A stretch of DNA of 64,000 nt from a virus: IMG/VR virus record IMGVR_UViG_3300027730_000009, positions 1 through 64,000 of that record; one strand, 5' to 3'. Every line of letters begins with the position of its first letter. Positions within the stretch are counted from its first letter, which is position 1. A program made the translations under genes and the position numbers. This document shows positions 7,039 through 51,751 of the stretch, in pieces. The notes below the pieces were generated by a model. It was not told the DNA's origin. It ran no database searches and saw nothing but the letters and a program-made list of their open reading frames with translations.

Positions 7039-7647
7039 ATGAAAATTATTGTAAATGAATCTCAACTTAAGTTGCTAACAGAACAAATTGAAGGGTTAGA
7101 TGAGTTTAAATTAAAAAGTTTTGCGTCTTACCCCGAAATAATTGAGTTTTGGGATGTTATTGAAAATCATATACAAAAATCAGGTGTAAAAAAAATTGAA
7201 TTGGGTAAACTGCGAATGGGTATTGCAGTTGCACTAATTAATGGTATTATTTTTAGTGAGAATGTTTTTAAACAACCACTACCTTTGTTCTTATTTTCTG
7301 TATTTCATGAATTTGCCCACCAATATCAATTTAAAAAATATGGTAAAGAAAAAATGTTGAAACTTTACACAAATGAAATGTCCATTGGAGAAGCCGCAAA
7401 ATTGATGAAAGAAATTGAATTGGTTGCAGATGAATTTGCAACAAGAAAATTAAGAGAATTACAAAAAAATGGTTTTTTAAAAAATATTATCATACCAAAT
7501 GGTTTTTACAAACAAATGCCCCTCTCAACATTTGAGAAAACTATAGAATACTTAAAATCCCAAATTAAAGACTTGAAACTCACTTCACCTGATGAAATCA
7601 GTAATGTGTTTTATAATTGGTTAAAACTTGAAGTTCAGAATTCTTAG
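7039..7647 (+). CDS. HExxH zincin-like metallopeptidase with leader peptide
   Basis: FHEFAHQYQ...ELVADEFA; MKIIVNESQLKLLTE; TATTTATA at 7026-7033. Confidence 0.65.
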   Translation: MKIIVNESQLKLLTEQIEGLDEFKLKSFASYPEIIEFWDVIENHIQKSGVKKIELGKLRMGIAVALINGIIFSENVFKQPLPLFLFSVFHEFAHQYQFKKYGKEKMLKLYTNEMSIGEAAKLMKEIELVADEFATRKLRELQKNGFLKNIIIPNGFYKQMPLSTFEKTIEYLKSQIKDLKLTSPDEISNVFYNWLKLEVQNS

Positions 7648-24215: not shown

Positions 24216-24626
24216 TTATACTCTTCGACATGCCCCGTCACATGTTTGTCCTGCCCCTTCGACATAACCAATTCTCATATCAATTGGAGTACTTCTTTTA
24301 TATGAGGTTTCTCTACCACAAATAACACAAACATCAAATTCGTTTTGTTGGTTTAACACACATTGCATGTGTTCTGTACCCACTAAATGTTCCGAAGACA
24401 ATCTGTATGTATTTTCACCACAAATTGAACAAGTTTGCATCATTGATTCCGCGTTGATAATAGATTTTACTAATCCGTCTTCACCGATTACCAAACCCAC
24501 ATGTTCATCAAAGTTTTGATTAATGTCTTTTTCATAAAGTTCCCAATATCTTTGTCTAACCAACTTACCCAATTCGTAATCATTAGGGTTGGATAGAATT
24601 TCTTGTTTTGTAACTCTTACATCCAT
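24216..24626 (-). CDS. hypothetical zinc-ribbon protein
   Basis: CSIC, CVICG...YVEGAGQTC. Confidence 0.65.
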   Translation of the reverse strand: MDVRVTKQEILSNPNDYELGKLVRQRYWELYEKDINQNFDEHVGLVIGEDGLVKSIINAESMMQTCSICGENTYRLSSEHLVGTEHMQCVLNQQNEFDVCVICGRETSYKRSTPIDMRIGYVEGAGQTCDGACRRV

Positions 24627-24709
24627 TTTTTTATTTAAATGTAAAAATCAAGCTACAAAAGTGAAACATTACATGAATTTATTTTACTTATATTTATAGA
24701 TTATTCATT

Positions 24710-25495
24710 ATGACTAACGAAAAACTTTATATCATAGCCAAAAAATTAGTTTCTTTTTTTCCCTCAGGGGAAAATATGGAAACTTTTTTAGAACGATTCA
24801 AGTATTTGTATACTAAACAAAATGAGTTTTTCTCTCTTTTTGATGAAGAAAGTATTTTCAAATTATTTGTTTTCATTTATCAGTTGACTCAAGTAGATTC
24901 AAATTTGGATTTAAACTATCTTATTTTAAAAACCGAAGAAACTAAAATAGTTTTAACCTTTTACACCTCTTACACCGATGTTTTTGATACTTGCTCTGCA
25001 TGTGGTGGTGACGGCGAAGTAAACTGTGATTATTGTGATGGTATTGGTGAATATGAATGTTCTGAATGTGATGGTACTGGAGAAATCGATGGTGAACCGT
25101 GTTCAACTTGTCAAGGGGGTGGAGAAGTTGGATGTGATTATTGTGGTGGGGATGGTTCTATTAGTTGTGATACTTGTGATGAAAATGGTGAAGAAGAAGA
25201 TTGGCAAGAAAAAAGTATTGAAGTATATTTCGAAATATCAGATGATGCTCAAGTTAATTCAGAATTGAACGATTATGAAGGTACTACAACTCCACTTTCT
25301 AACGTATTTGAAAACCGATTGAAAGTGTTGAAGGAGTATGATGTAACAGTAAGGACTGAAACTTTTCTTCAGTTTGAAAGTGATGAAAAGTTTGTTAAGC
25401 AAATTTTTAACCGACCAAAAAATAAAGGGATGATTTTACAAGGGATAATTTCATATTCGGAGTTTCCCACCCCTCTTTATTTTTCAAATATGTAA
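24710..25495 (+). CDS. protein with DnaJ-type CxxCxGxG zinc-finger repeats, no J domain
   Basis: Six CxxC repeats, five with GxG; TATTTATA at 24691-24698. Confidence 0.75.
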   Translation: MTNEKLYIIAKKLVSFFPSGENMETFLERFKYLYTKQNEFFSLFDEESIFKLFVFIYQLTQVDSNLDLNYLILKTEETKIVLTFYTSYTDVFDTCSACGGDGEVNCDYCDGIGEYECSECDGTGEIDGEPCSTCQGGGEVGCDYCGGDGSISCDTCDENGEEEDWQEKSIEVYFEISDDAQVNSELNDYEGTTTPLSNVFENRLKVLKEYDVTVRTETFLQFESDEKFVKQIFNRPKNKGMILQGIISYSEFPTPLYFSNM

Positions 25496-25569
25496 TAAAA
25501 AAGGTCAGAGTTAACTGACCTTTCTTGGGTCCAACAGGTTGTTGGACGCTCCACCACCTAACAGAGAGG

Positions 25570-25857
25570 TTAGGACTCTTTGATTACCTCGGCTTCCATT
25601 CGAGATTTGAAATGTTCAGACAAAGAATTTCCTTTCTTTTCTCCAACATGTTTAGTTATAATAATACATTCACAGAGAATTTTGTGAGGTATATTGAGAA
25701 GAAAATCGTCACCATTGAAAAAATTCAGGTCGGTTTTCAATTCAAGTGGTCCATGAATACCCATAAGAAACAATTTAAACTGACCAGACTTATCGAAAGT
25801 CTGATGAACTAATTTACCCAACTTCGGGTGTTTGATGATAATGGTGTTGTGTTTCAT
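25570..25857 (-). CDS. hypothetical protein (start revised)
   Basis: Promoter TTTG-N20-TATATTTG at 25907-25876 precedes ATG 25857. Confidence 0.6.
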   Translation of the reverse strand: MKHNTIIIKHPKLGKLVHQTFDKSGQFKLFLMGIHGPLELKTDLNFFNGDDFLLNIPHKILCECIIITKHVGEKKGNSLSEHFKSRMEAEVIKES

Positions 25858-25909
25858 GTTTATCGAATTACAACACAAATATAAAAAATAAATTTTAAAC
25901 TACCAAATT

Positions 25910-26371
25910 TTATTCTTCTAAGTCCATAATAAATCGTAAGGTTTTCTCCCCTCTATCAAGGAAATAAAAATCACGACCCTCCACATCTAAAAAAGAAACT
26001 ATTTGCAGGACGATTTTTTTCTTTTCAGAGTTTAGTTCTTCAATTTGCACCACCATTTGAGGTCTTGAATTACCCTTTATCTTTCTGATTATAAATCTCG
26101 GATGAAAACCATCTTCAGGTTTTATCTCCTTGAATTTTGTCCCTTGAAAAAAATACTTAGTTAGTATCAGGGGACTTGATAAATCGATAAGTTTATCGAA
26201 TATCCTTATATCAGGTATTCGAGGTTTACCATCTCGTTGTTCATATACATGTGGGGCTGTCCACCACTCAACTAAGTATTCACCCTCTCTGTAATAATCA
26301 TAAGGTTCTGAGCCAGGTCCCATTTCTTCGACAAGAAAAATTGTTTCTTTAAGAACACTTAAAAGTTTCAT
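25910..26371 (-). CDS. hypothetical protein with MKLLSVLKE leader
   Basis: Leader motif; TATTTATA at 26384-26377. Confidence 0.65.
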   Translation of the reverse strand: MKLLSVLKETIFLVEEMGPGSEPYDYYREGEYLVEWWTAPHVYEQRDGKPRIPDIRIFDKLIDLSSPLILTKYFFQGTKFKEIKPEDGFHPRFIIRKIKGNSRPQMVVQIEELNSEKKKIVLQIVSFLDVEGRDFYFLDRGEKTLRFIMDLEE

Positions 26372-26394
26372 ATTTTTATAAATACCCCTTTAAA

Positions 26395-26424
26395 TAAAAA
26401 ACCCCCAACCTTTCGGAAGGGGGT
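26395..26424 (-). terminator. Terminator of the large ncRNA
   Basis: Minus strand ACCCCC-TT-CC-GAAA-GG-TT-GGGGGT plus TTTTT. Confidence 0.75.
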
Positions 26425-27170
26425 TTGGCTAATGCTCTGAGACTACGAGCTTAGGTGGTCAGTCTTTGGTGGGATTATGGTTTCCCCACTCGGTCCACAA
26501 CAGTTGCCTGTCGTAACCAACCAATGTCGGTAATTTGAGTCTACCACTCTTTTCGTTGACACCAACTCAACTGATACTCCTATCTCTTCAACCTTGCGAG
26601 CTGACTGAGGGATGGCCGTCCCACGAGTAGTTTCTCAATCAACACCGATGGACTTGCGGTCCTATCCGTGCCTTCATTGGTCCGATGACCTGAAGGATTA
26701 GACACCTTTCAGTACCAACGCCCGAAGACTTTTGCTTGTATCATTGAATATCATTCACATTGATATGTAGCTTTGTAGAAGAATGAAAGATGTGCTTCGG
26801 GAGAAGGTCCATTCCTTTTGAGAACGAAATGCTTCACACCTCTCTGTCAACCCGCCAGTTGACGGTCAATCAGGACTACGGTGGGTTTAAACCCGTGGTA
26901 ACCCCTCAGACTGGTACTCAGCTTTACAACACCCAGCGGGATGTCTCAAACCGTCACCTGTACCTTTTCCTGTTGATGTCTCCATCGCAACCCCGATTCT
27001 CTACAAAATCGGGATGATGTCTCCCCCTCAGCACTTGCCGTCAGGGTTTTCACCGTAGGTACTTTGTTTAGTTGTCAGGTCATCGACCTGCGAGACTACT
27101 AAGGTCGCTAAACCTTCTCATCCCTTTTAGTCCCATCGCTGGGGTTATCTAAAGACGCTAAACCGCCTAT
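26425..27170 (-). ncRNA. large structured ncRNA, GOLLD-like
   Basis: ~750 nt, much more GC-rich than flanks, no credible ORF; GNRA-type loops on the minus strand; long-range helices 27058-27051/26883-26876, 26730-26722/26469-26461, 26637-26627/26446-26438; next to a tRNA. Confidence 0.7.
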
Positions 27171-27215
27171 TTTGTAATTCAAAGAACTCGTCAGATTTAC
27201 CTGACTTGTTGTTAA

Positions 27216-27244
27216 AGTATAATAAGATTTTTTAATCTTGTCAA
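27216..27244 (-). promoter_or_regulatory. sigma70-consensus promoter for the ncRNA
   Basis: TTGACA (27244-27239), 17 nt, TATACT (27221-27216). Confidence 0.65.
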
Positions 27245-27267
27245 GTACCTTATGAAACTTTTTTTAG

Positions 27268-27341
27268 TGGCGGGAGAAGGATTTGAACCTTCGACCTTAA
27301 GGTTATGAGCCTTGCAAGCTAACCAACTGCTCTATCCCGCA
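27268..27341 (-). tRNA. tRNA-Met(CAT), initiator type; CCA not encoded
   Basis: TGCGGGATAGAGCAGTTGGTTAGCTTGCAAGGCTCATAACCTTAAGGTCGAAGGTTCAAATCCTTCTCCCGCCA; 1:72 mismatch; TTCAAAT T-loop. Confidence 0.92.
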
Positions 27342-27447
27342 ATATTTTAAAGACCGACACCCGAAAAAAATCCCACAACTACTATGTTCTCTCGAACACT
27401 CATTGTGGGATGTGAAAGGGACCGAAGTCCTTCTTCCGAGTGTTCTA

Positions 27448-27478
27448 CAAAGATAAAACAAATTTAGGATTTGTCAAA
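27448..27478 (-). promoter_or_regulatory. Bacteroidota-type promoter for the tRNA
   Basis: TTTG, 19 nt, TATCTTTG. Confidence 0.75.
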
Positions 27479-27552
27479 TGACCTGTAGAACTTTTTGTGG
27501 GGTGTGTCAACCTCTCGGTTGAGATAATAAATATATCTTTTGTTTTGAAAAG

Positions 27553-27978
27553 TTAAACTTTATTTAAAATTGCCATTAATAATTTTTTGAAAAAATCACC
27601 AGTGTTCATTTCCATAATGTCTTCATAAGTAAAATACCCACAGTCACTGTGTTCTTCACCATCTTTAGCATTTTCTAAATCGGGATACAAATACGGATTA
27701 GATTGTAAAAGATAAACATACATCCACCCTTTTACAAACCTACCATCTCTTGAAGTACGAGGAACCAAACCAACAAAGGTTAAGTCATCTGAGGAAATAA
27801 TGATATCAGTTTCCTCATGGAATTCTCTAACAGCAGCTTCTTTTGTGGTTTCACCTTTCTCAACACTACCCGCAGGGACGGACCATACACCCGGCAAAGT
27901 TGCTTTGGTAGACCTTTTACAAAGTAAAACTTCGTCATTAACTTTTACAACAACACCAACATAAATCTTCTCTTTCAT
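27553..27978 (-). CDS. Nudix hydrolase (start revised)
   Basis: PAGSVEKGETTKEAAVREFHEET Nudix box. Confidence 0.9.
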   Translation of the reverse strand: MKEKIYVGVVVKVNDEVLLCKRSTKATLPGVWSVPAGSVEKGETTKEAAVREFHEETDIIISSDDLTFVGLVPRTSRDGRFVKGWMYVYLLQSNPYLYPDLENAKDGEEHSDCGYFTYEDIMEMNTGDFFKKLLMAILNKV

Positions 27979-27991
27979 ATTTATAATTACT

Positions 27992-28339
27992 ATGAGGTTA
28001 AAAATAGGGGATAATATCTTTAATGTAAAAGTTGTTACAAGTAATTTTGACAAAGCTCAAGGAATGATGAACAGAACTTTCACTGATGAGTTCAACGGAA
28101 TGTTATTTGTTATGGATGAAGACACCAGTTGTTTTTGGATGAAGAACTGTATAATCCCCTTAGACATAATCTTTATTGAAGGAACAACGATAACTAAAGT
28201 ACATCACAATTGCCAGCCTTGTAAGGATGAAGATTGTGATAGTTATTGCGGTAGAGGAAGATTAGTTCTTGAAATTCAAGGTGGTTCCGCAAATGAGCTT
28301 GACATAAAAAAAGGGGACCAAGTAAAACTTTTACTTTAG
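27992..28339 (+). CDS. DUF192-family protein
   Basis: GMM..GMLF..FWMKN..PLDIIFI..VLEI.GG. Confidence 0.85.
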   Translation: MRLKIGDNIFNVKVVTSNFDKAQGMMNRTFTDEFNGMLFVMDEDTSCFWMKNCIIPLDIIFIEGTTITKVHHNCQPCKDEDCDSYCGRGRLVLEIQGGSANELDIKKGDQVKLLL

Positions 28340-28366
28340 TCCCCATTTAATTTTAATTGGTTTTTA

Positions 28367-28756
28367 TCAGAACAAACCAAGTTTGGATAACCATCTTTCG
28401 AAAAAGTTACCTCTGATACCTAACTCAACCATTTTTTCATAAACACTCGGTCCAGGAATTCCATCCACATCGAGTTTCTCCATTTTTTGGAATTTCTTAA
28501 GTGCCTCAACCGTTGAAGGTCCCCACCTTTCATCAACAACTATTTTTGTTGGTATTTTTTTCATCTTAAAATATTCATTCAAAGCATTTTGAATTTCACG
28601 AACATCTCCCGATGATAGTTGATAACTTGAAAGTTGTTCATTGACCTTATTTTTTAAGTCTTTGACTTTCATTTCTACAACCACTTCTTGTTCTTTAATC
28701 ACATTGTCGATAATACGAGATAGTGCCTTTTCGGTGATACGGATATTTTTTTTCAT
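28367..28756 (-). CDS. peptidoglycan-binding (PG_binding_1) protein with leader peptide
   Basis: GDVREIQNALN..WGPSTVEALKKFQ..LDVDGIPGP; leader MKKNIRITEKAL. Confidence 0.8.
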   Translation of the reverse strand: MKKNIRITEKALSRIIDNVIKEQEVVVEMKVKDLKNKVNEQLSSYQLSSGDVREIQNALNEYFKMKKIPTKIVVDERWGPSTVEALKKFQKMEKLDVDGIPGPSVYEKMVELGIRGNFFERWLSKLGLF

Positions 28757-29121
28757 TCTAAAGTGAATAAGTATTTTCCTCTGTTTATTAACGCAACCAT
28801 CTCATCTCTTAGGTTTAACAAATCTGTGTCAAGGGTTGGGTCATAGATTTCATCAAAAGACAATAGGAAGTTTACCGAGTCATCAACAAACTCTTGTAAA
28901 GACATCTGTGATAAATCTTCAATCTCTAAACTCAAACCTCCAAGATATTCGGGTCTTCCGTGTTTTCCCATACATACTTCAGCAAATTCATCAACTAAAT
29001 TAACAAGTGCTTCGTATATCTTACCATAAGCCTTGTGTTTTGCATAGGAGAATGTCTGCCAATGCATAAATCTAAATTGCATTTGAATTTGGACTAACTT
29101 GGCTATAACTTCACTGTTCAT
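28753..29121 (-). CDS. phage ferritin/Dps-like protein (DUF5856-like)
   Basis: HWQT.SYAKHKA...DEFAE...NLRDEM..YLFTL. Confidence 0.8.
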   Translation of the reverse strand: MNSEVIAKLVQIQMQFRFMHWQTFSYAKHKAYGKIYEALVNLVDEFAEVCMGKHGRPEYLGGLSLEIEDLSQMSLQEFVDDSVNFLLSFDEIYDPTLDTDLLNLRDEMVALINRGKYLFTLE

Positions 29122-29151
29122 AAAAATTCTTTTATTATAAATACCTGAGAT

Positions 29152-29180
29152 AAGAAAAAACCCCCACTTTTGGTGAGGGT
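29152..29180 (-). terminator. Intrinsic terminator
   Basis: ACCCTCACCAAAAGTGGGGG plus TTTTTT; same stem-loop as at 936-957. Confidence 0.7.
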
Positions 29181-29186
29181 CTTTCT

Positions 29187-29312
29187 TTATTCTGATTGAG
29201 TCGAGAGTTTCTGAGCCTCTTGAATCATTAGGTCGGTACTGCCGTTGTATTTACAAGGGCAAGTAGGACGACCATGTTCCTTAAGAATTTGTTTTGCTTG
29301 TTCGAGTGTCAT
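29187..29312 (-). CDS. small protein (41 aa)
   Basis: Hand-translated MTLEQAKQILKEHGRPTCPCK...; flanked by TATTTATA and a terminator. Confidence 0.5.
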   Translation of the reverse strand: MTLEQAKQILKEHGRPTCPCKYNGSTDLMIQEAQKLSTQSE

Positions 29313-29369
29313 GTTTATAAATATTACAAAAATATAGACAATAAAAATAATTTGAAAATATAAATCAGT

Positions 29370-29765
29370 TTATTCCTTGTTGCAAATATAAAACCAAACC
29401 AAATCATTGTATTCGACCGCCAAAGTAATCAGAGCAGCATATCTTTCATCAAAGTGCATGGCAACATAACAACTCTTACCATCAGAATCTTTACACAACC
29501 ATCTTGATGTTCCAACAGACGCATCGACAGCGTTAACCACATGGTAATTCTGAGTTGTTTTACTATAAATAACAACCTTAGTTTGGTGAAGTTCAACCAA
29601 GATGTTGACCTCCTTACTGTCAATAATCCACTCTGTGACTGGACTGTTTTCATCTTGTCTTACACCCATTGAAGCGTTTTGTGCTCTGAGGTAAGTAATC
29701 TTAGTTTCCTGAGAAAATAAACTTGTGAAGGACACAAGCAAAAATAAAAGTAATAGTTTTTTCAT
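29370..29765 (-). CDS. secreted hypothetical protein (start revised)
   Basis: MKKLLLLFLLVSFTSLFS-Q signal peptide. Confidence 0.7.
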   Translation of the reverse strand: MKKLLLLFLLVSFTSLFSQETKITYLRAQNASMGVRQDENSPVTEWIIDSKEVNILVELHQTKVVIYSKTTQNYHVVNAVDASVGTSRWLCKDSDGKSCYVAMHFDERYAALITLAVEYNDLVWFYICNKE

Positions 29766-29857: not shown

Positions 29858-30259
29858 TTAAATTAATTTAATTTCAAACCTGTTTTTCATTTGTTCTAAC
29901 TTTTCTTCAGGTACTCCATGTTCGTTGACACCACCATGGCGGTTTTCCACAATCAAGGAATGAACACGATACCCATATTTTTCAGCCAACTTGTGGTAAT
30001 ATTCCATTTCCCACTCTTGGGTGAAAGTGTTTGATACAACAACAGGTGAATGTTCGTAATTAAACAAAAGCTCAACTTCGTTTTGACACCACATGTGTGC
30101 AAGTTTGATTTCAGATGGGTTGAACTTATAGTTCCCTTCCCTATCAACAAAATACATGTCAGTTTCTTTGTGACAATAGTCTTTGTTCCCCACAATCATT
30201 TTAGCAATTGTTGATTTACCCGAGTTTGGTAATCCTCTCAAGAGATATAGTTCTTTCAT
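29858..30259 (-). CDS. P-loop kinase (AAA_33, polynucleotide kinase-like)
   Basis: LLRGLPNSGKST, VVVSNTF, HGVP..KLEQM. Confidence 0.85.
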   Translation of the reverse strand: MKELYLLRGLPNSGKSTIAKMIVGNKDYCHKETDMYFVDREGNYKFNPSEIKLAHMWCQNEVELLFNYEHSPVVVSNTFTQEWEMEYYHKLAEKYGYRVHSLIVENRHGGVNEHGVPEEKLEQMKNRFEIKLI

Positions 30260-30260
30260 T

Positions 30261-30908
30261 TTACAGTCGTTTTTCGTGGTGGTCTTTTGGTAGGGTCAAT
30301 TTTCTGTGAAGACGGTCCTTCATAATGTTACGGATTTCCTCAAAAGAAATTGGGTAAAGGTCATTTCCGTCCACACCAACATCCATTGCTCGTCCTTCGT
30401 TGATACGAAGGTTAGGTGGAAGGTGAACATGACCATGAAGGTGAGCAACACCGTCATTCATACCATCCCAAGATGCAATCGGATAGTGCATACACACCAT
30501 AGAATATTTCAGAACCTCTTTACCGATTGGTTTGCGAATATCCAAGTGAAGGTAGTCCTGACAAGATGAAAAAATATCTTGGATATCTCCTTTGTTTCGA
30601 CGGATGTGATGGTCGTGGTTTCCGAAGGTCAGGTGAATGTTCTTACAAAGAATCCGACTACGAAACTCAGCGATGGATTCAAAACCGCCAAACGACCAGT
30701 CACCCAAGTGAATCAAAATATCGTCCTCACCTACCATCTCATTGATTCGGTTTACCAAAGTATCGTTCATGTGGTTTAAGGACTTATAATCACGGGTCAG
30801 GTTTTCAGCACCCACCCAATTGGTAGTAGCACGACAAATGTTTCCGTGGTTATAGTGAGTGTCTGATGTGAAAAACAGACCTTGCCCTTTTTCCAATACA
30901 ATTTTCAT
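30261..30908 (-). CDS. calcineurin-like metallophosphoesterase
   Basis: FTSDTH, HLGD, GNHD, HYP, HGHVH, DVGVD. Confidence 0.9.
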   Translation of the reverse strand: MKIVLEKGQGLFFTSDTHYNHGNICRATTNWVGAENLTRDYKSLNHMNDTLVNRINEMVGEDDILIHLGDWSFGGFESIAEFRSRILCKNIHLTFGNHDHHIRRNKGDIQDIFSSCQDYLHLDIRKPIGKEVLKYSMVCMHYPIASWDGMNDGVAHLHGHVHLPPNLRINEGRAMDVGVDGNDLYPISFEEIRNIMKDRLHRKLTLPKDHHEKRL

Positions 30909-30929
30909 AAGACAAAGATATAAAATATT

Positions 30930-32006
30930 TTACAACTTACGAAACTCAGGTTTGATTAATTTCCAAATGATTGGTTCTACATCCTTACCACCCAACATGG
31001 CAAATAAGATTGCTGGATGTTTAAACATTCGTGCACTTAGTGCAAAAAACTTTCGTATCCCCAATCCTTTTATTGAATCAAAGTGGTTTTGGTATTCCTC
31101 CTCAAGTTGGTTGAACTGAATAATCAATTCTTTCTCATACTCTTTGATTTTGCGGTAGAATTCATCAGGAACATGAGTTAAAATACTATCCATACTACCA
31201 CCCGATGACAATACCTCCCAAACCGCAGTGGTTGAAAGATTGGTCATGACCTTGTGGAGACGAACATATTCTTCAAACTTGATTTTCATCCTGAAGTTAC
31301 CAGGTTGGAATCTAAGGACAAAACCTTCTTTATTGGTCTCGTTCTTTTCTTTCAACGACTTGTATAACTCATCAGAGAAATTGAAATGTTGTTCGGTTTT
31401 AACCAAATCATCTTCTTCAACACCGTTAGCATGTAGAACCATCTTTGCGGTAGTCCAGTGTAGTTCGGTGTCGTCCGTTGGTTCCCATTTCCAACTCTCA
31501 TTCAAAACCACGGATAAGAACACAATTTTTTCTTCATCGTATCGAACAACAATTCGATTCGCTTCATAAATTATCTCCACTAAGTAGGCATATTCTTTTG
31601 ACCATGAAGCCAAAAAATACTTTGATTTAACAATCTCAAGACCTTTGATTGCTTGTTCAGAAGCAAATGAACCACGGGTTGCCATAATCCATTGGTCTTC
31701 GTAGTTGAACAAAATACCCAAAGACCCATCCATCTTTTCTTGGATGTAAACATAATCGCCCTTGGAAGGGATTACTTCCTTACCAATAACCTCCTCGTAG
31801 TTAAAGAATTTTTTAAAGGGGCGAACCAATATTTTACCAGTGGTATTCTCAGTTATAAGACCTCTACATTGCACCGTAACCTCGTCCCACAACCCTTCGT
31901 ACTGAACTTTCTCGGTGTAGTTCCATATAGTCAATGGAAGGGTGGGATGAGTTTGTTTGTACAACAACCCATCTTCATAATAACGATTAAGCGTCTCAAT
32001 AGTCAT
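30930..32006 (-). CDS. T4 Rnl1-like RNA ligase
   Basis: CRGL, RPFKKFFN, EKMDGSLG, ATRGSF, EII..NRIVV.Y, EGFV, KIKFEEY. Confidence 0.9.
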   Translation of the reverse strand: MTIETLNRYYEDGLLYKQTHPTLPLTIWNYTEKVQYEGLWDEVTVQCRGLITENTTGKILVRPFKKFFNYEEVIGKEVIPSKGDYVYIQEKMDGSLGILFNYEDQWIMATRGSFASEQAIKGLEIVKSKYFLASWSKEYAYLVEIIYEANRIVVRYDEEKIVFLSVVLNESWKWEPTDDTELHWTTAKMVLHANGVEEDDLVKTEQHFNFSDELYKSLKEKNETNKEGFVLRFQPGNFRMKIKFEEYVRLHKVMTNLSTTAVWEVLSSGGSMDSILTHVPDEFYRKIKEYEKELIIQFNQLEEEYQNHFDSIKGLGIRKFFALSARMFKHPAILFAMLGGKDVEPIIWKLIKPEFRKL

Positions 32007-33091: not shown

Positions 33092-33970
33092 CTATTCCGC
33101 CAAATCTTTTTCAAAATTAATTTTTTGTTGTTTTTTCTCATCAATAAACCCCTGAACTCTCTTTCGAGCAACTTCGGTGTAGTTGGGTGACAATTCAATT
33201 CCAATCCAACGACGGTCTAATACTTCTGCGGCGACCAAACTAGTTCCACTACCAGCAAATGGGTCCAATACAACATCATTCTTGTAAGTCAGAATTTTAA
33301 TTGCTTTGGTTGGGATGTCCATTGAGAAAGTAGCTTTGGTCATACTCTTGGTATCGGCAAAATAATTCCACTGTCCAAATACCAAGTCAATGAATTCTCT
33401 TTTTTGGTCTTCAGTATAAACCTTTTTTTGTTTGGTAACACCATTCTCATCTTCAACATCAATCCATTCGTTTGTCCATTGAGGTTTACCCTTAATTTTT
33501 TTAATGTGTTCTTTCTTGTAAGCTAAGATAACACACTCTTTCGGGTTGTAGATGTAAGGTGAACTTGGGCTCATCCAACTTCCCCATGCGGTGGTACGGC
33601 TACGGTGTGGTGACTCTTCTTCCAAATCAACGATTCCGAAGAATTTGTATCCGATTTGTTTCATAATCTGCCAAATTTCACTAACCATAAAAATTCTTCC
33701 ACCCTTATTTTGCCGATTAATTTCATAAGGAATATTCAAAGCAATCCTTCCATCATCTTTTAAAACACGGAAAGCTTCAGTCATCCACTTTTTTGTGAAT
33801 TCAAAATATTCTTCGGGTGTCATATCATCATCATGTACATCGTATTCAATACCAACCCCATATGGACAACTTGTAACAATCAAATCAACACAGGATTCAG
33901 GAAGGGTTTTCATTTCTTCAATACAATCTCCATTAATTATTGTACCGATAGTGTTTTCTAAATTTCTCAT
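33092..33970 (-). CDS. beta-class N4-C/N6-A DNA methyltransferase
   Basis: GDCIE..VDLIVTSCPY..VLDPFAGSGT..IGIELS. Confidence 0.9.
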   Translation of the reverse strand: MRNLENTIGTIINGDCIEEMKTLPESCVDLIVTSCPYGVGIEYDVHDDDMTPEEYFEFTKKWMTEAFRVLKDDGRIALNIPYEINRQNKGGRIFMVSEIWQIMKQIGYKFFGIVDLEEESPHRSRTTAWGSWMSPSSPYIYNPKECVILAYKKEHIKKIKGKPQWTNEWIDVEDENGVTKQKKVYTEDQKREFIDLVFGQWNYFADTKSMTKATFSMDIPTKAIKILTYKNDVVLDPFAGSGTSLVAAEVLDRRWIGIELSPNYTEVARKRVQGFIDEKKQQKINFEKDLAE

Positions 33971-34733
33971 AGTTTTGTTTTTTTCTTTCTAAACATATTT
34001 TACAATCTGAGTAAATGTAATTATAAAAATTTACATTATCCAATTTGTTTTGTATTTGTAATCTAATTTTATCATAAAGATTTATATTAATATTATTTCT
34101 CTTTAACTCTTCAACAACAAACTTTTGAAATTTTTCAGACGCTGAGACAATACTTGTGCAGTTTTTACTTTTTGTTGGATTGAAAGTGAATGACCCATCA
34201 CCATCAAAATATCCTCTAATGAAATGTCTTTTGAGATTATTTTCAATGTTAGGGGAATCAATTGTAAATGTTTTTCGTGAGTGAATACCTTGTTTTTTTA
34301 TTGAGTTTACCAATTTTTGTGAGTAAATTGCTAAGTGAACCATGTGAGACTTTGAAATCCCATCCTTGTATTTTACAGAATTATAACCCTCAACTATGAG
34401 ATGATTTGATTTCAAATGTTCTCTAAAAAGTTCTAAATGTTCAACATCCTTATAAGACAATTTTAATTCGAGCGAACACCCTGAAGACCTCTCCCGAATA
34501 TAACCATCCGCAAATAAAAAACCTAACCAGTATGCTTTCTCTTCGGAGTCAATTTTGTCAAAATAAGTTTCATCAACTTTATAACGCCGATTATCCAATT
34601 CAATACCATGATTTTTCAATATTCGTCTAATTGGCGAAATTGACACACCGAAAAATTGTGAAACTTTATGAATACTTCTAAACTCTCTGTATTTGGACAG
34701 AACTTCTTGTTCATTCAATAATAACTTCTCCAC
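33933..34733 (-). mobile_element. free-standing LAGLIDADG homing endonuclease
   Basis: AYWLGFLFADG and HFIRGYFDGDGS; N-terminal HTH; overlaps MTase start. Confidence 0.85.
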
Positions 34734-39342: not shown

Positions 39343-40365
39343 ATGAGTAAGTATGATTTTTTACTTAGAAAATTCAACAATGGTCAATTGGGAAATATTT
39401 TAGGCGCCTTGGATGGTAAGATAGAACCTATTATTGGATTATTAGATAAAAAAGGATTACTTGACCAAATAAATTTGACTTCTAATGATAACGAAGAATA
39501 TCATAACCATGGCTATTATTATATCGCCAAAAACCATCCAGAAAAGTTTTTATCGATGATGGTAGAATTCTTCGATGAAATTTCTGTTGAGGGCGATGGT
39601 AGAACATTTTTAACTATTGCTGACCGAAGTGACCTATCCGAGTTATTTTGTGATAGTATTAGAAATGGTTTGAGTCAAAGCACCGTTGCAAACATTTTGG
39701 ATGGTGAAAATGATTGGAGAAGTTTTGATGTATCATCTGAAAACCTTTATCGGGATGTTATCGAAGATTTAACTCCCAAAAATGAAACTATTTTATATCA
39801 AAGAGTGTTAAAAGATTTTCTGAATGAAAGTGAGAAGATTTATCCTGAAACAGAGCTACTTCAATCAATTGCCGAAGAACAAGGTCATAATGATTTCGTT
39901 GAACTAACCCAAGAGAATATCCCTAAGATTTTCTCAGATGAAGATAGTGCTCTCTCAGTATTGGGTATTTTGGAAGATTTGAGGTCAGATTTACATTCTT
40001 TATACGACAGCGCATACAACGACGCGTATGAACCTGAACTATATGAAAACATTTTCAATTCATTAAGTGATTTTTTTGTTGGCAGAGGTGATTGGGTTTC
40101 AAAACAATCCCCTAAAGACCCAACCAAAACTCAATATGATTTTAGAATTGAAGTCAATGACTTTGTTGGTTTAATGAAAAGGTATTTCGATGAACTCAGA
40201 GGTGAAGGTACCCATACTATTGAAAATTATGGTTATTTTATGAGTGTTCTACAAAATGGTATTGATATGGGTGTATTTGAATGCGTTAGGGTATTCGCAC
40301 CTGACTATGCCGACTGGACCAAAATGAAAGAAAGTTTTAACGAGTTATTTTCAGACTATATCTAA
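39343..40365 (+). CDS. acidic hypothetical protein
   Basis: 340 aa; TATTTATA at 39330-39337. Confidence 0.75.
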
Positions 40366-43300
40366 ATCAGCAAACCTTTTTCTTTCGCCCTATTAAATAA
40401 TTTTTCAGCTCTTTCTTCGAGTTGATTGATTATAGTATCCTGTTCTTTAAGAGCCTCAACACAAATAGCAATTACTTCACGATATCTTACCATGTAAGTA
40501 TTTTGCTCAGAACCAACTACTAATTCAGGGTAAAACTGAAGTATTTCTTGTGCAATGAATCCTATTTCTGGCTCTTCTTTCTTTCCCCAAGCATAATCTT
40601 CTAACCAATTGAATTCAACACCTCTAATTTTCTGTATTGTCTCCAATGCGGATTCAATTTGATGAATGTTTGTCTTTAATCTAAAATCTGAAGGTCCAGT
40701 AGGACCGGGAGCTCCTTGAGCACCCTGTGGTCCAGTTGGACCTTGAGCACCTGTACCAACTTTTTGTCCCTGAGCACCTTGAGGACCTGCAAGAGCTCCA
40801 CCTATGTCACCTTGTGCTCCTTGAGGACCTCCACCTCCTTGAGCACCTTGAGCACCTTGTGGTCCTATTGCCCCTTGTGAACCTTGGGAACCTTGGGGAC
40901 CAACACCTCCTTGAACACCTTGTCCACCGGCAGCACCTTGGAATCCTTGAGCTCCAGCCGCTCCTTGGAAACCTTGACCTCCTTGGGCTCCTTGAGCTCC
41001 TTGAGCTCCAGTCGCTCCTTGGGAACCTTGAAAACCTACAGGTCCTTGAGCTCCTTGAGGTCCTTTAGAACCTTGTGCTCCTTGAGGCCCTTGTGCCCCT
41101 TGTCCTCCTTGAGCTCCTTGAGGTCCTACAGCTCCTTGAGCACCTTGACTTCCTTGAAATCCTTGTCCTCCAGTTGCTCCTTGGAAACCTTGAGCACCTT
41201 GACCTCCTGTCGCCCCTTGGAAACCTTGTCCGCCTTGAGCTCCTTGAGGTCCTACAGCCCCTTGAGCACCTTGAGCACCTTGAAATCCTTGACCTCCTTG
41301 AGCTCCTTGAGGTCCTTTCGCACCTTGAGCACCTTGAGCTCCTTGGAAACCAGTAGTTCCTTGGGCACCTTGTGGGCCAACAGCACCTATATGTCCCGTA
41401 GCTCCCTGAAAACCTTGTCCTCCTTGAGCTCCTTGAGCACCTTCAGGACCGGTTGCTCCTGTAGCTCCTTGGAACCCTTGAGCTCCGACGGCACCTTGTG
41501 AACCCTGTGGCCCTATATGACCTTGAGCACCTTGGAATCCTTGACCTCCTACCGCTCCCTGAGAACCTTGTGGTCCTTGAGCTCCTTGAGCACCTTGGAA
41601 TCCCTGACCCCCTTGAGCACCCTGAGACCCTTGAGCACCTATGGCTCCTTGAGCTCCTTGGAATCCTGTTCCACCTTGAGCCCCTTGCGGACCTAAGGCC
41701 CCTTGAGCACCTACCGCTCCTTGATTCCCTTGTCCTCCTTGTGCACCTTGGGACCCTACTGGACCTTGAGCACCTTGAGCTCCTTGAAATCCTTGACCTC
41801 CCTGCGCTCCTTGGGGACCTTGAGCACCTTGACCTCCTGTCGCCCCTTGAAATCCTTGTCCTCCTTGAGACCCTTGTGGACCTTTTGGTCCTTGGGCACC
41901 TTGAGCTCCTTGAAATCCTTGTATCCCTTGAGCTCCTTGTGAACCAATAGCACCTTGAGCTCCTTGTGCTCCTTGAAATCCTTGACCTCCTTGAGCTCCT
42001 TGTGGTCCAGTTCCACCCTGAGCTCCGACAGCACCTTGAAACCCCTGTCCTCCTTGTGCCCCTTGAGCTCCCTGAGGTCCTTGCGCCCCTTGAGCTCCTT
42101 GGAACCCTTGAGCTCCGACGGCACCTTGTGAACCCTGTGGCCCTATATGACCTTGAGCACCTTGGAATCCTTGACCTCCTACCGCTCCCTGAGAACCTTG
42201 TGGTCCTTGAGCTCCTTGAGCACCTTGGAATCCCTGACCCCCTTGAGCACCCTGAGACCCTTGAGCACCTATGGCTCCTTGAGCTCCTTGGAATCCTGTT
42301 CCACCTTGAGCCCCTTGCGGACCTAAGGCCCCTTGAGCACCTACCGCTCCTTGATTCCCTTGTCCTCCTTGTGCACCTTGGGACCCTACTGGACCTTGAG
42401 CACCTTGAGCTCCTTGAAATCCTTGACCTCCCTGCGCTCCTTGGGGACCTTGAGCACCTTGACCTCCTGTCGCCCCTTGAAATCCTTGTCCTCCTTGAGA
42501 CCCTTGTGGACCTTTTGGTCCTTGGGCACCTTGAGCTCCTTGAAATCCTTGTATCCCTTGAGCTCCTTGTGAACCAATAGCACCTTGAGCTCCTTGTGCT
42601 CCTTGAAATCCTTGACCTCCTTGAGCTCCTTGAGAACCTATTGCACCCTGAGCTCCGATAGCTCCTTGAAGACCGATACCTCCTTGAGCTCCTTGTGCGC
42701 CTATTGCACCTTGTGCTCCTTGAGCCCCTTGAAATCCTTGCCCTCCTTGAGCTCCTTGAGCACCTATCGCTCCTTGTGCACCGATTGCTCCTTGTACTCC
42801 CTGAGGTCCAATTGCTCCTTGTACTCCTTGAGCACCTTGACCACCTACATGACCTTGAACACCCTGACCCCCTTGAGCTCCTTGTGAACCTATTGGGCCT
42901 ATCGCTCCTTGAGCTCCTTGGAACCCTTGTCCACCTTGAGAACCTTGAGAACCTCGGGGACCTTGAGAACCTTCTAATCCCTGAGCTCCTTGTCCTCCTT
43001 GAGCCCCTTGAGCACCTTGAGAACCTATAGCACCTTGAGAACCTTGAGCACCTTGAGCCCCTATCAAACCCTGTGGACCTGGAACTCCTTGGGAACCAGT
43101 TGCACCTTGTGACCCTTGAGCTCCTTGAGGTCCTGTATTTTTATTACCTAACCAACCCTGAGGACCTATAATGTTACCAAAATTATTTTGGATAATATTG
43201 GTTCGAGTGTTACCTGAAATTCTTAATGTAGGTGCCGCGTCTATTATTTTAACAATAGAACCTGAATTAGGTGTCGAATATACTAACCCTGAACTATTGG

Positions 43301-43385
43301 ATAGATAAACCCAATTGGTAACAGTAGACGCGGAATCAAGGAACTCAAATTTTCCATCCAAAGGATAAATTACTATGTCAGCCAC
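40362..43385 (-). CDS. collagen-like fibre protein 1 with C-terminal S74 intramolecular chaperone
   Basis: ~815 aa Gly-X-Y (GAQ/GPQ/GFQ); S-DFRLKTNI...GFIAQE; terminal coiled coil. Confidence 0.9.
41463..42632. repeat. ~540-bp near-exact direct repeat, period 630 bp
   Basis: 41463-42002 matches 42093-42632; shadow ORFs 41703..41942 and 42333..42572 translate identically. Confidence 0.85.
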
Positions 43386-46300
43386 CGATTAATGATTTGA
43401 GTTGATTAAGTTTAGTTTGTATTGATTTCACTCTTGTATTATTTTCTTTTAAAGTTGCAATACCTACGGAAACAAGTAAATCGTATTGTAGATTTTTAAA
43501 ACCATAAATATCAGTGCTCACGACTTCAGGAAAAAGTTTTTCTATTTCTTGAGCAATAAATCCTATACTTTTTCCTTTTAATAGATATTTCTGGTTTGGT
43601 TTATACCCCTCCAATTGAGGAATATTGTCTCTCCATTCGAATCTGACACCCTTCATACCAATTACACGACTTTTTATATTTTCTAATGATTTTACATTAG
43701 TTTTTAGTCGTTTATCTGATGGGGGACCTTGCGCTCCTTGGGCCCCTTGTGGTCCTTTTGGCCCTTGAGCACCTGTACCCCCTCCTATCCCTTGTGCACC
43801 TTGAGGTCCATCTGGTGGTTCCCCACCACCACCAGCTATTCCTTGAGCCCCTTGAGAACCTTGAAAGAATCCATTTGCACCTGTGGCTCCTTGAAAACCT
43901 TGGACATTGCCAGCCCCTTGAGCTCCTTGAGGTCCAGTTGGCCCTGTTGCACCGGGGGTGATATTGGGTTGACCGGGATGTCCAGTCACCCCAAATGAAC
44001 CTTGGGCACCCTGAGGACCACCCTGAGCTCCTACAGCAGATATGGCACCCTGAGCACCAGTAGCCCCTTTAGCACCAATAGCTTCAATTGGGTCAGCTGC
44101 AGCCCCGGGATTACCAGTATCACCAACAGCTCCACCAAATCCCGGAGCACCTGTAGTTACACTTGCAGCCCCATTATTACCTGTCGTTCCTTGAGCACCA
44201 GTAAATCCCGGTGCACCCTGTGTCACCCCTGCAGCTCCGTTGTGACCTGTTGCACCTCCATTACCATTAGCTCCGGTATGTCCTTGGACGGCACCTTGAG
44301 CACCTTGAAATCCTGTGGCACCCTGAGCACCTCCAAATCCCGGTGCACCTTGGGTGGCACCTTGAGCTCCTTGAAACCCTGTAGCTCCTTGTGCACCAGT
44401 AAATCCTAAATCACCCGTCACAGAACTTTGAGCTCCTTGGGCTCCTTGACTTCCTTGACTTCCTTGGGCTCCTACATGCCCTGTTGGTCCTCCTTGAGCC
44501 CCTATTTGTCCTTGGGCTCCTTGTGGACCTGTTGCGCCAGTGTGTCCTTGAACTATCGATGCTGGTCCTTGAGCTCCTTGAGGACCTTTAGTACCTTGAG
44601 CTCCGACGGCTCCTGATACTTCACTTGCGGTCCCACCGTGTCCTGTAGGTCCTTGTGCACCTATACCTCCTGTATGTCCTTGAACAGCTCCTTGGGCACC
44701 TATATGTCCTTGGTCACCTTGAGCACCTTGTGCTCCTTTGGCACCCACAGCTGAAATCGCGTCACCGGCAGCTCCAGTGTGACCTGTAGCCCCTTGGGAA
44801 CCTTGTGCTCCGGTAGCCCCTTGAACCGCATTTTGTGCACCTTGAGCTCCTTGAGAGCCTTGTGAGCCAGTAAATCCCGGCGCTCCTTGTGTTGCCCCTG
44901 CAGCACCGATGTTACCTGTGGCTCCTTGGGAACCTGCAGCTCCCGTATGTCCCTGAACCGCACCTTGTGCTCCCTGAAACCCTTGTGCTCCTTGTGCACC
45001 AAAAATACCATCATGACCAGGGTTGACCCCTTGAGCGCCTTGTTGACCCACGGCACCTTGTGCCCCTATAATACCTCCATGTCCTGTCACTGCACTTTGA
45101 GCTCCTGTTGCACCTTGAGCTCCCTGAGCTCCTTGACCACCGACAGCACCTTGGACAGCTCCTTGAGCTCCAATGTGTCCCTGAGCTCCTTGAGCTCCAA
45201 TAACACCAACATGTCCCTGAACCGCCGATTGAGGTCCTTGAGCTCCTTGAGGACCTTTGGTACCTTGAGCACCCTGAGCACCTGAGACTTCACTTGCGGT
45301 CCCACCGTGTCCTGTAGGTCCTTGTGCACCTATACCACCTGTATGTCCTTGAACAGCTCCTTGAGCACCTATATGGCCTTGGTTACCTTGAGCACCTTGA
45401 GCTCCTTTCGCCCCATCAGTACCTAATCCTGCAGCAGCTCCTGTATTTCCCGTTCCTCCTTGAGCACCTTGTGCTCCGATGTTACCGGTTGGTAATCCTT
45501 GTGCTCCCACGGCTCCTTGAGCACCTTGAAAACCCATTACTCCAGAAGCACCTTGAGTACCACCATCAGCACCGATATTACCTGTAGCTCCTTGGGAACC
45601 TGCAGCTCCCGTATGTCCCTGAACCGCACCTTGTGCTCCCTGAAACCCTTGTGCTCCTTGTGCACCAAAAATACCATCATGACCAGGGTTGACCCCTTGA
45701 GCGCCTTGTTGACCCACGGCACCTTGTGCCCCTATAATACCTCCATGTCCTGTCACTGCACTTTGAGCTCCTGTTGCACCTTGAGCTCCCTGAGCTCCTT
45801 GACCACCGACAGCACCTTGGACAGCTCCTTGAGCTCCAATGTGTCCCTGAGCTCCTTGAGCTCCAATAACACCAACATGTCCCTGAACCGCCGATTGAGG
45901 TCCTTGAGCTCCTTGAGGACCTTTGGTACCTTGAGCACCCTGAGCACCTGAGACTTCACTTGCGGTCCCACCGTGTCCTGTAGGTCCTTGTGCACCGATA
46001 CCACCTGTATGTCCTTGAACAGCTCCTTGAGCACCTATATGGCCTTGGTCACCTTGAGCACCTTGTGCTCCCTTAGCTCCAATATCTAAAAATTCCGATG
46101 CCGCAGCTCCTGTATTTCCAGTTCCTCCTTGAGCACCTTGTGCTCCGATGTTACCGGTTGGTAATCCTTGGGCTCCCACGGCTCCTTGAGCCCCTTGAAA
46201 ACCCATTACCCCAGACGCACCTTGAGTGCCACCATCAGCACCGATGTTACCTGTGGCTCCTTGGGAACCTTCAGCTCCCGTATGTCCCTGAACCGCACCT

Positions 46301-47244
46301 TGTGCTCCCTGAAACCCTTGCGCTCCTTGAGCACCAAAAATACCATCATGACCAGGGTTGACCCCTTGAGCGCCTTGTTGACCTACGGCACCTTGTGCAC
46401 CTTCAAACCCTATATGTCCTTGTACAGCCCCTTGTGAACCGATAGCACCCTGTGCTCCTTGAGCACCGATTGCCCCTTGTGCTCCCTGAACAGCCCCTTG
46501 TGCTCCAACCTCACCTTGTGCCCCTTGGGCACCAATTGAACCTGTTTCACCTGCAACACCACCTTGGGCACCAATACCACCTTGAGCTCCTTGAAAACCT
46601 TGAGCACCTTGTGCACCTATTGTTTCATTTGCCAATCCAACAACTCCCTCACCACCTTGAGCCCCTTGAGCTCCTTGAGCCCCTACGGTAGCCCCTTGAG
46701 CTCCTTGAGCACCTTGTGGTCCTTTAACACCTTGAGCACCTTGTGCTCCTTGTATACCTCCTTGGGCACCTTGAGCTCCGGCACCCCCTTGGGCACCTTG
46801 TGCTCCTTGTGCACCTGACACACCACCTTTAGCACCTTGAGCTCCTGTGTCCCCTTGAATCCCTTTAGCACCTTGAGCTCCTTGAGAACCTTGAGCACCC
46901 TGAGGACCTATAGGTCCAACTGCGCCCTGGGCTCCTTGGCCACCGATAGCACCTTGGAATCCTTGAATATTTAGTGGTGGTCCGACCCATTCACCGATGG
47001 TGTTTATCATCAGGGTTTCACCAGCCCAAACCCCTGATGTAGCATTGGTAATTGCAAGTCCTTTAGAGACTAATCCTGTTGTCGAAATTTCAACAGTGTC
47101 AAATTGGGTTACCGAGGAGAAATTAATTCTGTCCGCCTCCAACATAACCACAACCATACCTGATGATACAGAATCATCAAAAACAAAAAGTGGGTCAAGA
47201 GTTAAGGGAGAACCTTGAGGAAAAATAGTTACATTCAATGCCAT
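43378..47244 (-). CDS. collagen-like fibre protein 2 (regularly interrupted) with S74 chaperone
   Basis: ~1080 aa; six triplets plus one 4-residue unit per period; SDKRLKTNV...GFIAQE. Confidence 0.9.
44560..46400. repeat. tandem repeat, period 666-669 bp, about 2.7 copies (boundaries approximate)
   Basis: Shadow ORFs at 45087/45753 and 45499/46168 are offset by 666 and 669. Confidence 0.75.
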
Positions 47245-47245
47245 A

Positions 47246-50200: not shown

Positions 50201-51751
50201 TCCTTGAGCTCCTTGGCCTCCTTGAGCCCCTTGAGCTCCTTGAGCGCCCTGAGGTCCTAAGGCTCCGGTGTGTCCAGTGGCTCCAGCAGCACTCTGAGAA
50301 CCTTGAGACCCTTGTGGTCCTCTTGCCCCGATTTCTCCAGTAGCCCCTTGTGCTCCTTGGGACCCTTGAGCACCTTGGGGTCCTATGTTTCCCTGAGCAC
50401 CTTGGGCACCTTCACCACCTTGTGCTCCTTGAGCACCCTGTGGACCAACTAATCCTTGAGCCCCTTGAGCCCCTTTTGAGCCTTGTGACCCTTGTGGCCC
50501 GAAAGGTCCTACTAATCCTTGGGCACCTTGTCCTCCTTTTGCTCCTTGTACCCCTTGAGCTCCTTGGGGACCCGCAGCACCTTGAGCACCTTGAGAACCT
50601 ATTCCTCCTTGAGCACCTTGTGCCCCTTGAGGCCCGATAGCACCTGTGGCTCCTTGGAAACCCTCGGCACCTTGTGCTCCGATGTTACCCGTGGAGCCGA
50701 TTGCCCCCTCAGAACCTTGAGCACCAGTAGTTCCCTCAGCACCTTGAGCACCAGTAGGTCCTATTGCTCCTTGAACACCCTGAGGCCCTTTGGGACCTTG
50801 TGCACCTTGAGCACCAACAGCAGCATTTAGAGTATTGTTGTAATCCAAAAATTCGATACCAAAAAACATTTTGATATCTTGATTCACATTAGTGCTTCCT
50901 GAAGTAAAAGATATCCCAAAATCCCAATAGTTACCAAACAAGGATGTACTAGTAACATTATAGAGATAATTACCATCGAGAGGTCCATCAACATCGAGTA
51001 ATTCAACTCTTAAATCCCAGTTATTATCAATTTGAGAAAATATACTACTTAAATCAACAAGTCCAGCTCCTTGAGGTGTAGTTCCTCCTGAAACTGAGAC
51101 TGACATTGTGTTAACACCAGTCACTGTTGTGTCACTATTAGTCGCCGCAACCCTTAGAGCCCCATCAAAAGTCGAGTCAGCTACCCATGTCCACCAATAT
51201 GGACCATAAATTGTTGGTTGACCACCACCTTGATTTCCTTGTGGTCCTTGAGCACCTTGCGCACCTTGGGCACCAATGGCACCCTGAGCACCTGTAATAT
51301 TGGTACCAGGTCCTGTCCAATTTCCTGTACCATCCAAGACTTGTGTACCTCCGACCGATAAAAAGTTAGTGACCGTAAGGGTTGAAAACACATAAACCTC
51401 AGGAGAACATCCTCCCAAGTTTGATGAAAGAACATCACTAATATCTGTTACTGTACTTGGTCTTACACAACGATAATAAGTTAGACCCGAAGGAACATTA
51501 ATAGTTTCTAATACCCCTGTACTACAATTACGATATGTCGCAACCCCCGTTCCTCCACCAGTTGCCAAAAATGAAAAGTAATCACAATTTTCTTGGGGTG
51601 CAAATAAAACTTGGTTTTCAAATAACAAAGAGGCATCATATAACACCAAAATTTTGAACTTAAAACTTGGGTCAGTCTCAAATAATATTTCAGGAATGTT
51701 TCCAGGTCTTGAACGTATATTACTTGGAAATATTGTTAGATTCTTTGCCAT
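47246..51751 (-). CDS. collagen-like fibre protein 3 with inserted globular domain, Cys-rich domains and S74 chaperone
   Basis: Main Gly-X-Y run 50815-47822; Cys-rich segment before SDARLKTNV...GFIAQE; TATTTATA at 51775-51768. Confidence 0.9.
48560..50380. repeat. tandem repeat, period 630-633 bp, about 3 copies (boundaries approximate)
   Basis: Shadow ORFs at 48760/49390/50023 and 49037/49670. Confidence 0.75.

Follow-up and report, generated by a model that had tools for sequence, protein, structure and literature searches.

A GOLLD RNA gene beside an initiator-like tRNA(CAU) gene in a freshwater phage contig

Introduction

Does an ORF-poor, G+C-rich block beside a tRNA gene of a freshwater phage encode a member of the GOLLD family, or does it represent a new class of large ornate RNA? 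The question stems from an original prediction, made from the letters alone, on a 64,000-nt stretch of viral DNA (positions 1 to 64,000 of IMG/VR record IMGVR_UViG_3300027730_000009; hereafter, the window), which named both possibilities. Few natural RNAs are known to assemble into cages free of protein, and GOLLD RNAs are among them. Their cage structure, association with tRNAs and lytic-phase expression have been described (PMC12286853, PMC12990946). The env-38 GOLLD was seen by cryo-EM as a 14-mer (PDB 9MEE; Kretsch et al. 2025, PMC12286853), while Streptococcus agalactiae GOLLD forms a 12-mer (PDB 9L0R), or a 10-mer in the case of its 3' domain alone (PMC12286853, PMC12990946); the published stoichiometry (10, 12, 14) varies with the 5' domain (PMC12286853, PMC12990946). 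Here, we conclude that the window very probably carries a complete GOLLD gene of a large lytic-type freshwater phage. The family is already known, and the locus is a well-documented GOLLD member, not a new RNA class.

Materials and Methods

The window was searched with Rfam covariance models, including that of GOLLD (RF02032; gathering score 150 bits), which covers the conserved 3' half of the RNA only. Relatives were collected by pattern scans of viral and metagenome contigs followed by BLAST, which yielded 24 distinct full-length sequences, 73-99% identical; together with the window sequence they make up alignment A2 (25 sequences). The two domains of the RNA were folded separately and pairs were then counted on the alignment. 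Contigs from RNA studies were aligned to positions 24500-29500 of the window.

Results

Genomic setting of the locus

The window belongs to a viral contig of 91,973 nt, whose estimated completeness of 31% points to a phage of roughly 300 kb. The phage genes of the window encode collagen-like tail fibres, an Rnl1-type RNA ligase, a NUDIX hydrolase, a Y-family polymerase and glycosyltransferases, and the collagen-like genes (Table 1) explain the skewed 55% G+C block (40-52 kb) in a genome of roughly 34% G+C. GOLLD genes are located in phages or prophages, commonly next to tRNA genes. The same holds here, where a tRNA(CAU) gene lies directly upstream, its end 25 nt from the GOLLD promoter; the occurrence that the original prediction had given for GOLLD (lake metagenomes, phages, often near tRNAs) fits the locus in its tRNA, its phage genes and its lake habitat. 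About 40 related loci share the gene order DUF5856, peptidoglycan-binding protein, NUDIX, GOLLD. Several close relatives (L042, L085, L037) lack the tRNA neighbor, so the GOLLD-tRNA link is not obligatory.

Elsewhere in the window, genes for an AAA_33 kinase-like protein, a calcineurin-type phosphoesterase-like protein and the Rnl1-type RNA ligase are adjacent (29858-32006, minus strand), the phosphoesterase-like gene being recognized by a weak match of 19.1 bits, below the Pfam cut-off of 21.5. This trio, located 2.6 kb from the tRNA and GOLLD genes, resembles the T4-style tRNA repair set. At 33092-34733 (minus strand), a LAGLIDADG homing-endonuclease-like gene and a gene for an N6/N4 DNA methylase overlap, the overlap falling at the end of the former. 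For the motif CGKTCTTTRAA, the window shows no enrichment, with 10 matches vs 7.1 expected.

Identity and extent of the RNA

We found that the minus strand at 26434-26844 matches the Rfam GOLLD model over its whole length (positions 1-416 of 416) with 301.8 bits (E 2.2e-85), about twice the gathering score, so that the GOLLD half of the original prediction proved right. Among the models it had put forward for this search (GOLLD, ROOL, OLE, RNase P, tmRNA and group I/II introns), GOLLD alone matched; the others gave nothing at gathering score in the window or at E<=1 in 26300-27600. Other Rfam calls in the region are the tRNA and one noise-level match on the terminator hairpin (12.9 bits vs a gathering score of 88). 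There is no counter-evidence to GOLLD membership.

Because the Rfam model spans the 3' half only, we assign the remaining 365 nt (27209-26845) to the variable 5' domain of the family. No Rfam family matched these 365 nt in a permissive scan (E<=1), and nothing similar to them was seen in the GOLLD loci L086 and L089-L091. GOLLD RNAs possess a structured, less conserved 5' domain and reach about 700-850 nt in total, a range which includes the ~815 nt of the present transcription unit, extending on the minus strand from the promoter (27244-27216) to the terminator (26419-26392). Both of these boundary signals had been proposed beforehand, together with a length of ~750 nt, which should be corrected to about 815 nt when counted from the predicted start. 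The description of the block at 26395-27244 as G+C-rich and ORF-poor is borne out by a single ORF of more than 50 codons, on the plus strand, and by a G+C content of 0.425 (26001-27000) and 0.47 (Rfam match) vs about 0.30-0.38 in the adjacent kilobases.

In nearly all relatives, a promoter of the form TTGAC(A/G/C)-16/17-TAT(A/C)(C/T)T lies ahead of the first hairpin. It is positioned 40 nt before the conserved core, which begins at GGCGGUUUAGCG, in the closest relatives, and farther upstream in those with an enlarged first hairpin or an inserted extra one. The first hairpin itself occurs in all relatives, its stems differing in sequence and remaining complementary (CAGG/CCTG, CGGG/CTCG, GGGGG/CCCC, GAGGG/CCTC), and is followed by (A/G)CGTTCTTT(A/G)AA and, in some of them, by an extra hairpin. 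This arrangement suggests, as the most likely transcript start, a position about 7 nt beyond the -10 element (about 27209), which would make the hairpin of the leader (27205-27190) the first helix of the RNA.

Table 1. Features of the GOLLD locus and of the collagen-like gene block in the window.
Feature	Position	Strand	Description and evidence
tRNA leader with second promoter	27342..27477	-	promoter TTGACA-16-TATCTT (27477-27450) and structured leader of about 100 nt before the tRNA; promoter scan, folding
tRNA, anticodon CAU, initiator-like	about 27267..27341	-	ARAGORN tRNA-Met (CAU); Rfam 27268-27341
sigma70-like promoter	27216..27244	-	TTGACA-17-TATACT; 11/12 consensus matches; predicted start near 27209
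5' leader	27178..27209	-	hairpin GTCAGG-TAAA-TCTGAC (27205-27190), then conserved GAGTTCTTTGAA; alignment of relatives
GOLLD 5' domain	26845..27177	-	variable among subtypes, about 18 helices; folding and covariation, 25 sequences
GOLLD conserved 3' domain	26434..26844	-	whole Rfam model; RF02032 match; covariation, helices 19-36
AU-rich variable linker (J13/15)	26731..26790	-	after first 3'-region hairpin; unpaired Rfam positions about 60-117
Intrinsic terminator	26392..26419	-	stem AACCCCC..GGGGGTT, then T-run; compensatory changes in relatives (columns 820-850)
Three consecutive collagen-like (Gly-X-Y) tail-fibre genes	40362-51751	-	1,007, 1,288 and 1,501 codons

Conservation of the fold

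In the 25 aligned sequences, standard pairs fill 99.1% of the cells of the 201 predicted pairs, vs 37-47% when the partners are slid by 1-3 columns. Covariation, which had been proposed as a check, is evident: 74 pairs show compensatory double changes vs 32.5 +/- 2.7 in shuffles, none of 500 shuffles reaching 74. Helices 1-18 of the 5' domain are 96-100% paired, the majority with compensatory double changes. The same degree of pairing was determined for helices 19-36 of the 3' domain, most of which possess 2-5 double-change pairs, in keeping with the GOLLD family. Selection keeps the GOLLD fold over all 800 nt.

The long-range Rfam helix of CGUUGGUACU with GGUGUCAACG (helix 25) was regained when the domains were folded separately, and four of its pairs are compensated. 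Without this division of the alignment, RNAalifold joined the 5' end to the region behind the linker instead; we rejected this fold in favor of the Rfam helix, since the latter reappears in the separate domain folds with its four compensated pairs.

As for the individual elements of the original prediction, its four local hairpins, namely GGACCGCAAGTCC, GTCAAC..GTTGAC (in which most relatives have G-C in place of a C-G pair), CCCGATT..AATCGGG and CAGGTC..GACCTG, are all present and kept across relatives, three of them with compensatory changes. In contrast, its three long-range helices find no support in covariation, as a double change was seen in one of 26 pairs and none in CTACGGTG/CACCGTAG or AGTCTTCGG/CCAAAGACT. 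The GGUG (GGTG) of the first of these helices is mismatched in 8-15 of 25 sequences, while it covaries with a local partner (helix 7, four of four pairs compensated); the second one, AGTCTTCGG/CCAAAGACT, includes a C.A mismatch on the RNA strand. The AU-rich linker exists as predicted, yet does not divide the two domains, for it sits in the 3' region and the domain border lies at about 26845.

Typical for GOLLD is a linker, variable and single-stranded, that follows the first hairpin of the 3' region and sometimes bears a tRNA. The linker of the window differs in length and sequence among relatives (alignment columns 410-470), and no tRNA was detected inside it by ARAGORN or Rfam. In the cryo-EM cage, the J13/15 linker is disordered and faces the interior (PMC12286853). 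A tRNA inside the linker is described in the literature for some GOLLD members, and we observed one (7252-7324) within the linker of L086:6954-7394 (minus strand), a GOLLD that is more distant and differs in its 5' domain.

The motif GGUUUAGCG is present twice in the 5' domain (27156-27164 and 27107-27115, minus strand), each time in or beside a hairpin loop. It is nearly invariant in the 25 sequences, and the solved env-38 RNA has a similar GGUUUAGC in one of its loops; the motif may represent a conserved tertiary or inter-subunit contact.

BLASTN of the GOLLD RNA and the tRNA leader against 50,697 GenBank phage records gave no match, hence no cultured phage relative. An exact 15-mer of the 3' domain retrieved mostly chance matches from viral contigs (relatives being 8 of 83), and a 22-mer of env-38 had no exact match in the viral contig collection.

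The neighboring tRNA(CAU) and its leader

Bacterial initiator tRNAs are marked by a 1:72 mismatch, an A11:U24 pair and three G:C pairs in the anticodon stem. The mismatch is kept in all 12 related loci of alignment A3, as U.C in the window and as C.A, A.A or C.U elsewhere, and pair 11:24 reads as A:U from the alignment; on these two marks we regard the tRNA(CAU) as initiator-like. At the bottom of the anticodon stem, three G:C pairs (GGG/CCC) are found in the relative L104 and only two in the window copy. The gene has no encoded CCA end. Judged by its sequence, it looks like a phage-encoded initiator tRNA.

The leader before the tRNA has a predicted fold with an MFE of -39.3 kcal/mol (z -4.33), including a UUCG hairpin and, at its end, a terminator-like CCCACAAC..GTTGTGGG followed by U7. 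In 17 related loci the leader is retained with 70-99% identity (alignment A3 includes 11 distinct sequences); it has no ARAGORN tRNA call and no Rfam match, and could be a small RNA or an attenuator. In the related locus L022, the tRNA and the GOLLD promoter are separated by a 195-codon ORF with a methyltransferase-like glycine motif (L022:11165-11752, plus strand); the GOLLD of this locus is 98.5% identical to that of the window overall and 100% in the 3' domain.

Identity profile against related loci

Comparison with L052 revealed that the GOLLD gene (26400-27099 vs L052:7385-8165) forms an island of identity in flanks of about 40-65% overall. Identity amounts to 53-73% on the NUDIX side, rises to 83-88% over the tRNA and promoter and to 95-100% over the GOLLD body (27099-26400), including the normally variable linker, and falls below 50% directly beyond the terminator. 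The proteins of the flanking genes share about 45-50% identity or are unalignable. L008 shows the opposite pattern, as its NUDIX protein is 87% identical and its GOLLD only 88%. The simplest reading of these profiles would be that diverged phages have recently exchanged the GOLLD gene.

GOLLD sequences in RNA libraries

An index search detected near-identical GOLLD sequences in 23 runs that are recorded as RNA and belong to at least 14 studies of lakes, rivers and other freshwater. Contigs from four RNA studies cover 26439-27165 at 90-100% identity, which attests to presence and is no proof of transcription, strand or ends. The summed contig depth reaches about 1,000 in one RNA run. No contig of the four RNA runs was found on the 2 kb flanking GOLLD on either side, and the contigs of three studies end at 27151-27165; such limits are at most a weak hint at a discrete, abundant RNA.

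Discussion

The window RNA shares with env-38 GOLLD the architecture of the 3' domain, both P21-type hairpins, the linker after the first 3' hairpin, a size of ~0.8 kb, the location directly downstream of a tRNA-Met gene and an origin in environmental phage-type DNA. In the 5' domain, the likeness, compared by eye, is limited to short motifs (the GGUUUAGC loop and GUAC.GGUG..CGGUU...GUACCAG); otherwise this domain is unalignable by eye and about 55 nt shorter in the window (365 vs 420 nt). The S. agalactiae RNA belongs to the same family and has the same conserved 3' domain, yet it lacks P9, P11a-c and P21b and measures about 700 nt, whereas the window RNA is longer and keeps two hairpins at the P21 position. 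Given these two hairpins and the greater length, the window RNA seems closer to the lake/env type. ROOL, in turn, is likewise a large ornate phage RNA, found near tRNAs in phages and prophages and forming cages (6- to 8-mers), but it is unrelated in sequence and fold, and no Rfam ROOL match was obtained in 26300-27600 even at E<=1.

Judged by the sequence, host RNA polymerase would start at about 27209 from the strong sigma70-type promoter and stop at the intrinsic terminator near 26393, releasing an ~815-nt RNA in which the 5' domain (27209-26845) is followed by the conserved 3' domain (26844-26434). On the model of the two solved cages, its copies would join by A-minor contacts and kissing loops and close into a cage of 12 to 14 subunits, with the 5' domains as caps, the 3' domains as rings and the AU-rich linker turned inward. 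The hairpin GGGAC-GGCC-ATCCC carries an invariant self-complementary GC in its loop in all 25 sequences; if our mapping onto the Rfam consensus is right, this loop would correspond to L21a, the symmetric kissing contact of the solved structure (PMC12286853). By analogy with its solved relatives, the window RNA probably forms a cage, of a copy number that would depend, as in the published structures, on the 5' domain; this domain differs here in sequence from that of both solved RNAs. During infection, the cage would target the translation apparatus, where it would hold or shield tRNAs or parts of the ribosome. Such a role is proposed because tRNA genes keep company with GOLLD, in this case an initiator-like tRNA(CAU); drawn from gene neighborhood and literature only, the handling of tRNAs or ribosomes is a tentative and rather doubtful suggestion.

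It could be argued that the locus encodes a new class of large ornate RNA that merely resembles GOLLD, as the 5' 365 nt lack an Rfam match and differ from env-38 except for short motifs. This is very improbable: the 3' 411 nt fit the GOLLD model from end to end with a score of twice the cut-off, variability of the 5' domain is among the traits that define GOLLD (PMC12286853), and the unbroken conservation across 25 sequences excludes an Rfam match to a fused fragment. Even less credence, next to none, can be given to a protein-coding or dual-function region built on some small ORF. The best candidate is an ATG-started frame of 75 codons (26790-27017, plus strand) which is free of indels among most relatives, yet it is interrupted by in-frame stops in 21 of the 24, the substitutions are compensating pairs in stems, and the promoter and terminator are oriented opposite to it. 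Codon-level conservation of an ORF, which the original prediction had named as an argument against a structured RNA, is thereby absent, and the GOLLD region is non-coding.

The dependence of the RNA on its tRNA neighbor needs separate consideration, since there is no terminator between the two genes and read-through from the 27477 promoter is possible; moreover, the tRNA and the GOLLD body each have a similar CG(G/T)TCTTTAAA element in front of them. The RNA might accordingly be regarded as chiefly a processed part of a tRNA operon, in which it would form an extended 3' trailer of the tRNA(CAU) transcript and have no role of its own. We consider this highly unlikely in view of the GOLLD gene's own near-consensus promoter, which is conserved even in relatives devoid of the upstream tRNA, the strong selection on the fold across all 800 nt and the ORF that separates tRNA and GOLLD in L022.

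A further proposal for this clade of freshwater phages would combine GOLLD, the initiator-like tRNA(CAU) and the structured ~100-nt leader into one conserved module downstream of the NUDIX gene, in which GOLLD would be swapped as a promoter-to-terminator cassette among phages that are otherwise diverged and the cage would act on translation initiation. We think this unlikely as a whole; if true, the cage would work in takeover, through capture of the initiator tRNA or the ribosome, and would be selected like a portable accessory gene. As it stands, the locus is a cleanly bounded GOLLD example with promoter, first hairpin, both domains and terminator. It offers a set of 24 distinct relatives and covariation that is strong in the 5' domain, a part of GOLLD that has been little studied; its genomic address, next to NUDIX and the initiator-like tRNA, is fixed, and it bears signs of having been exchanged between phages as a cassette. 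These are handles useful for choosing constructs, or for relating 5'-domain types to cage stoichiometry.
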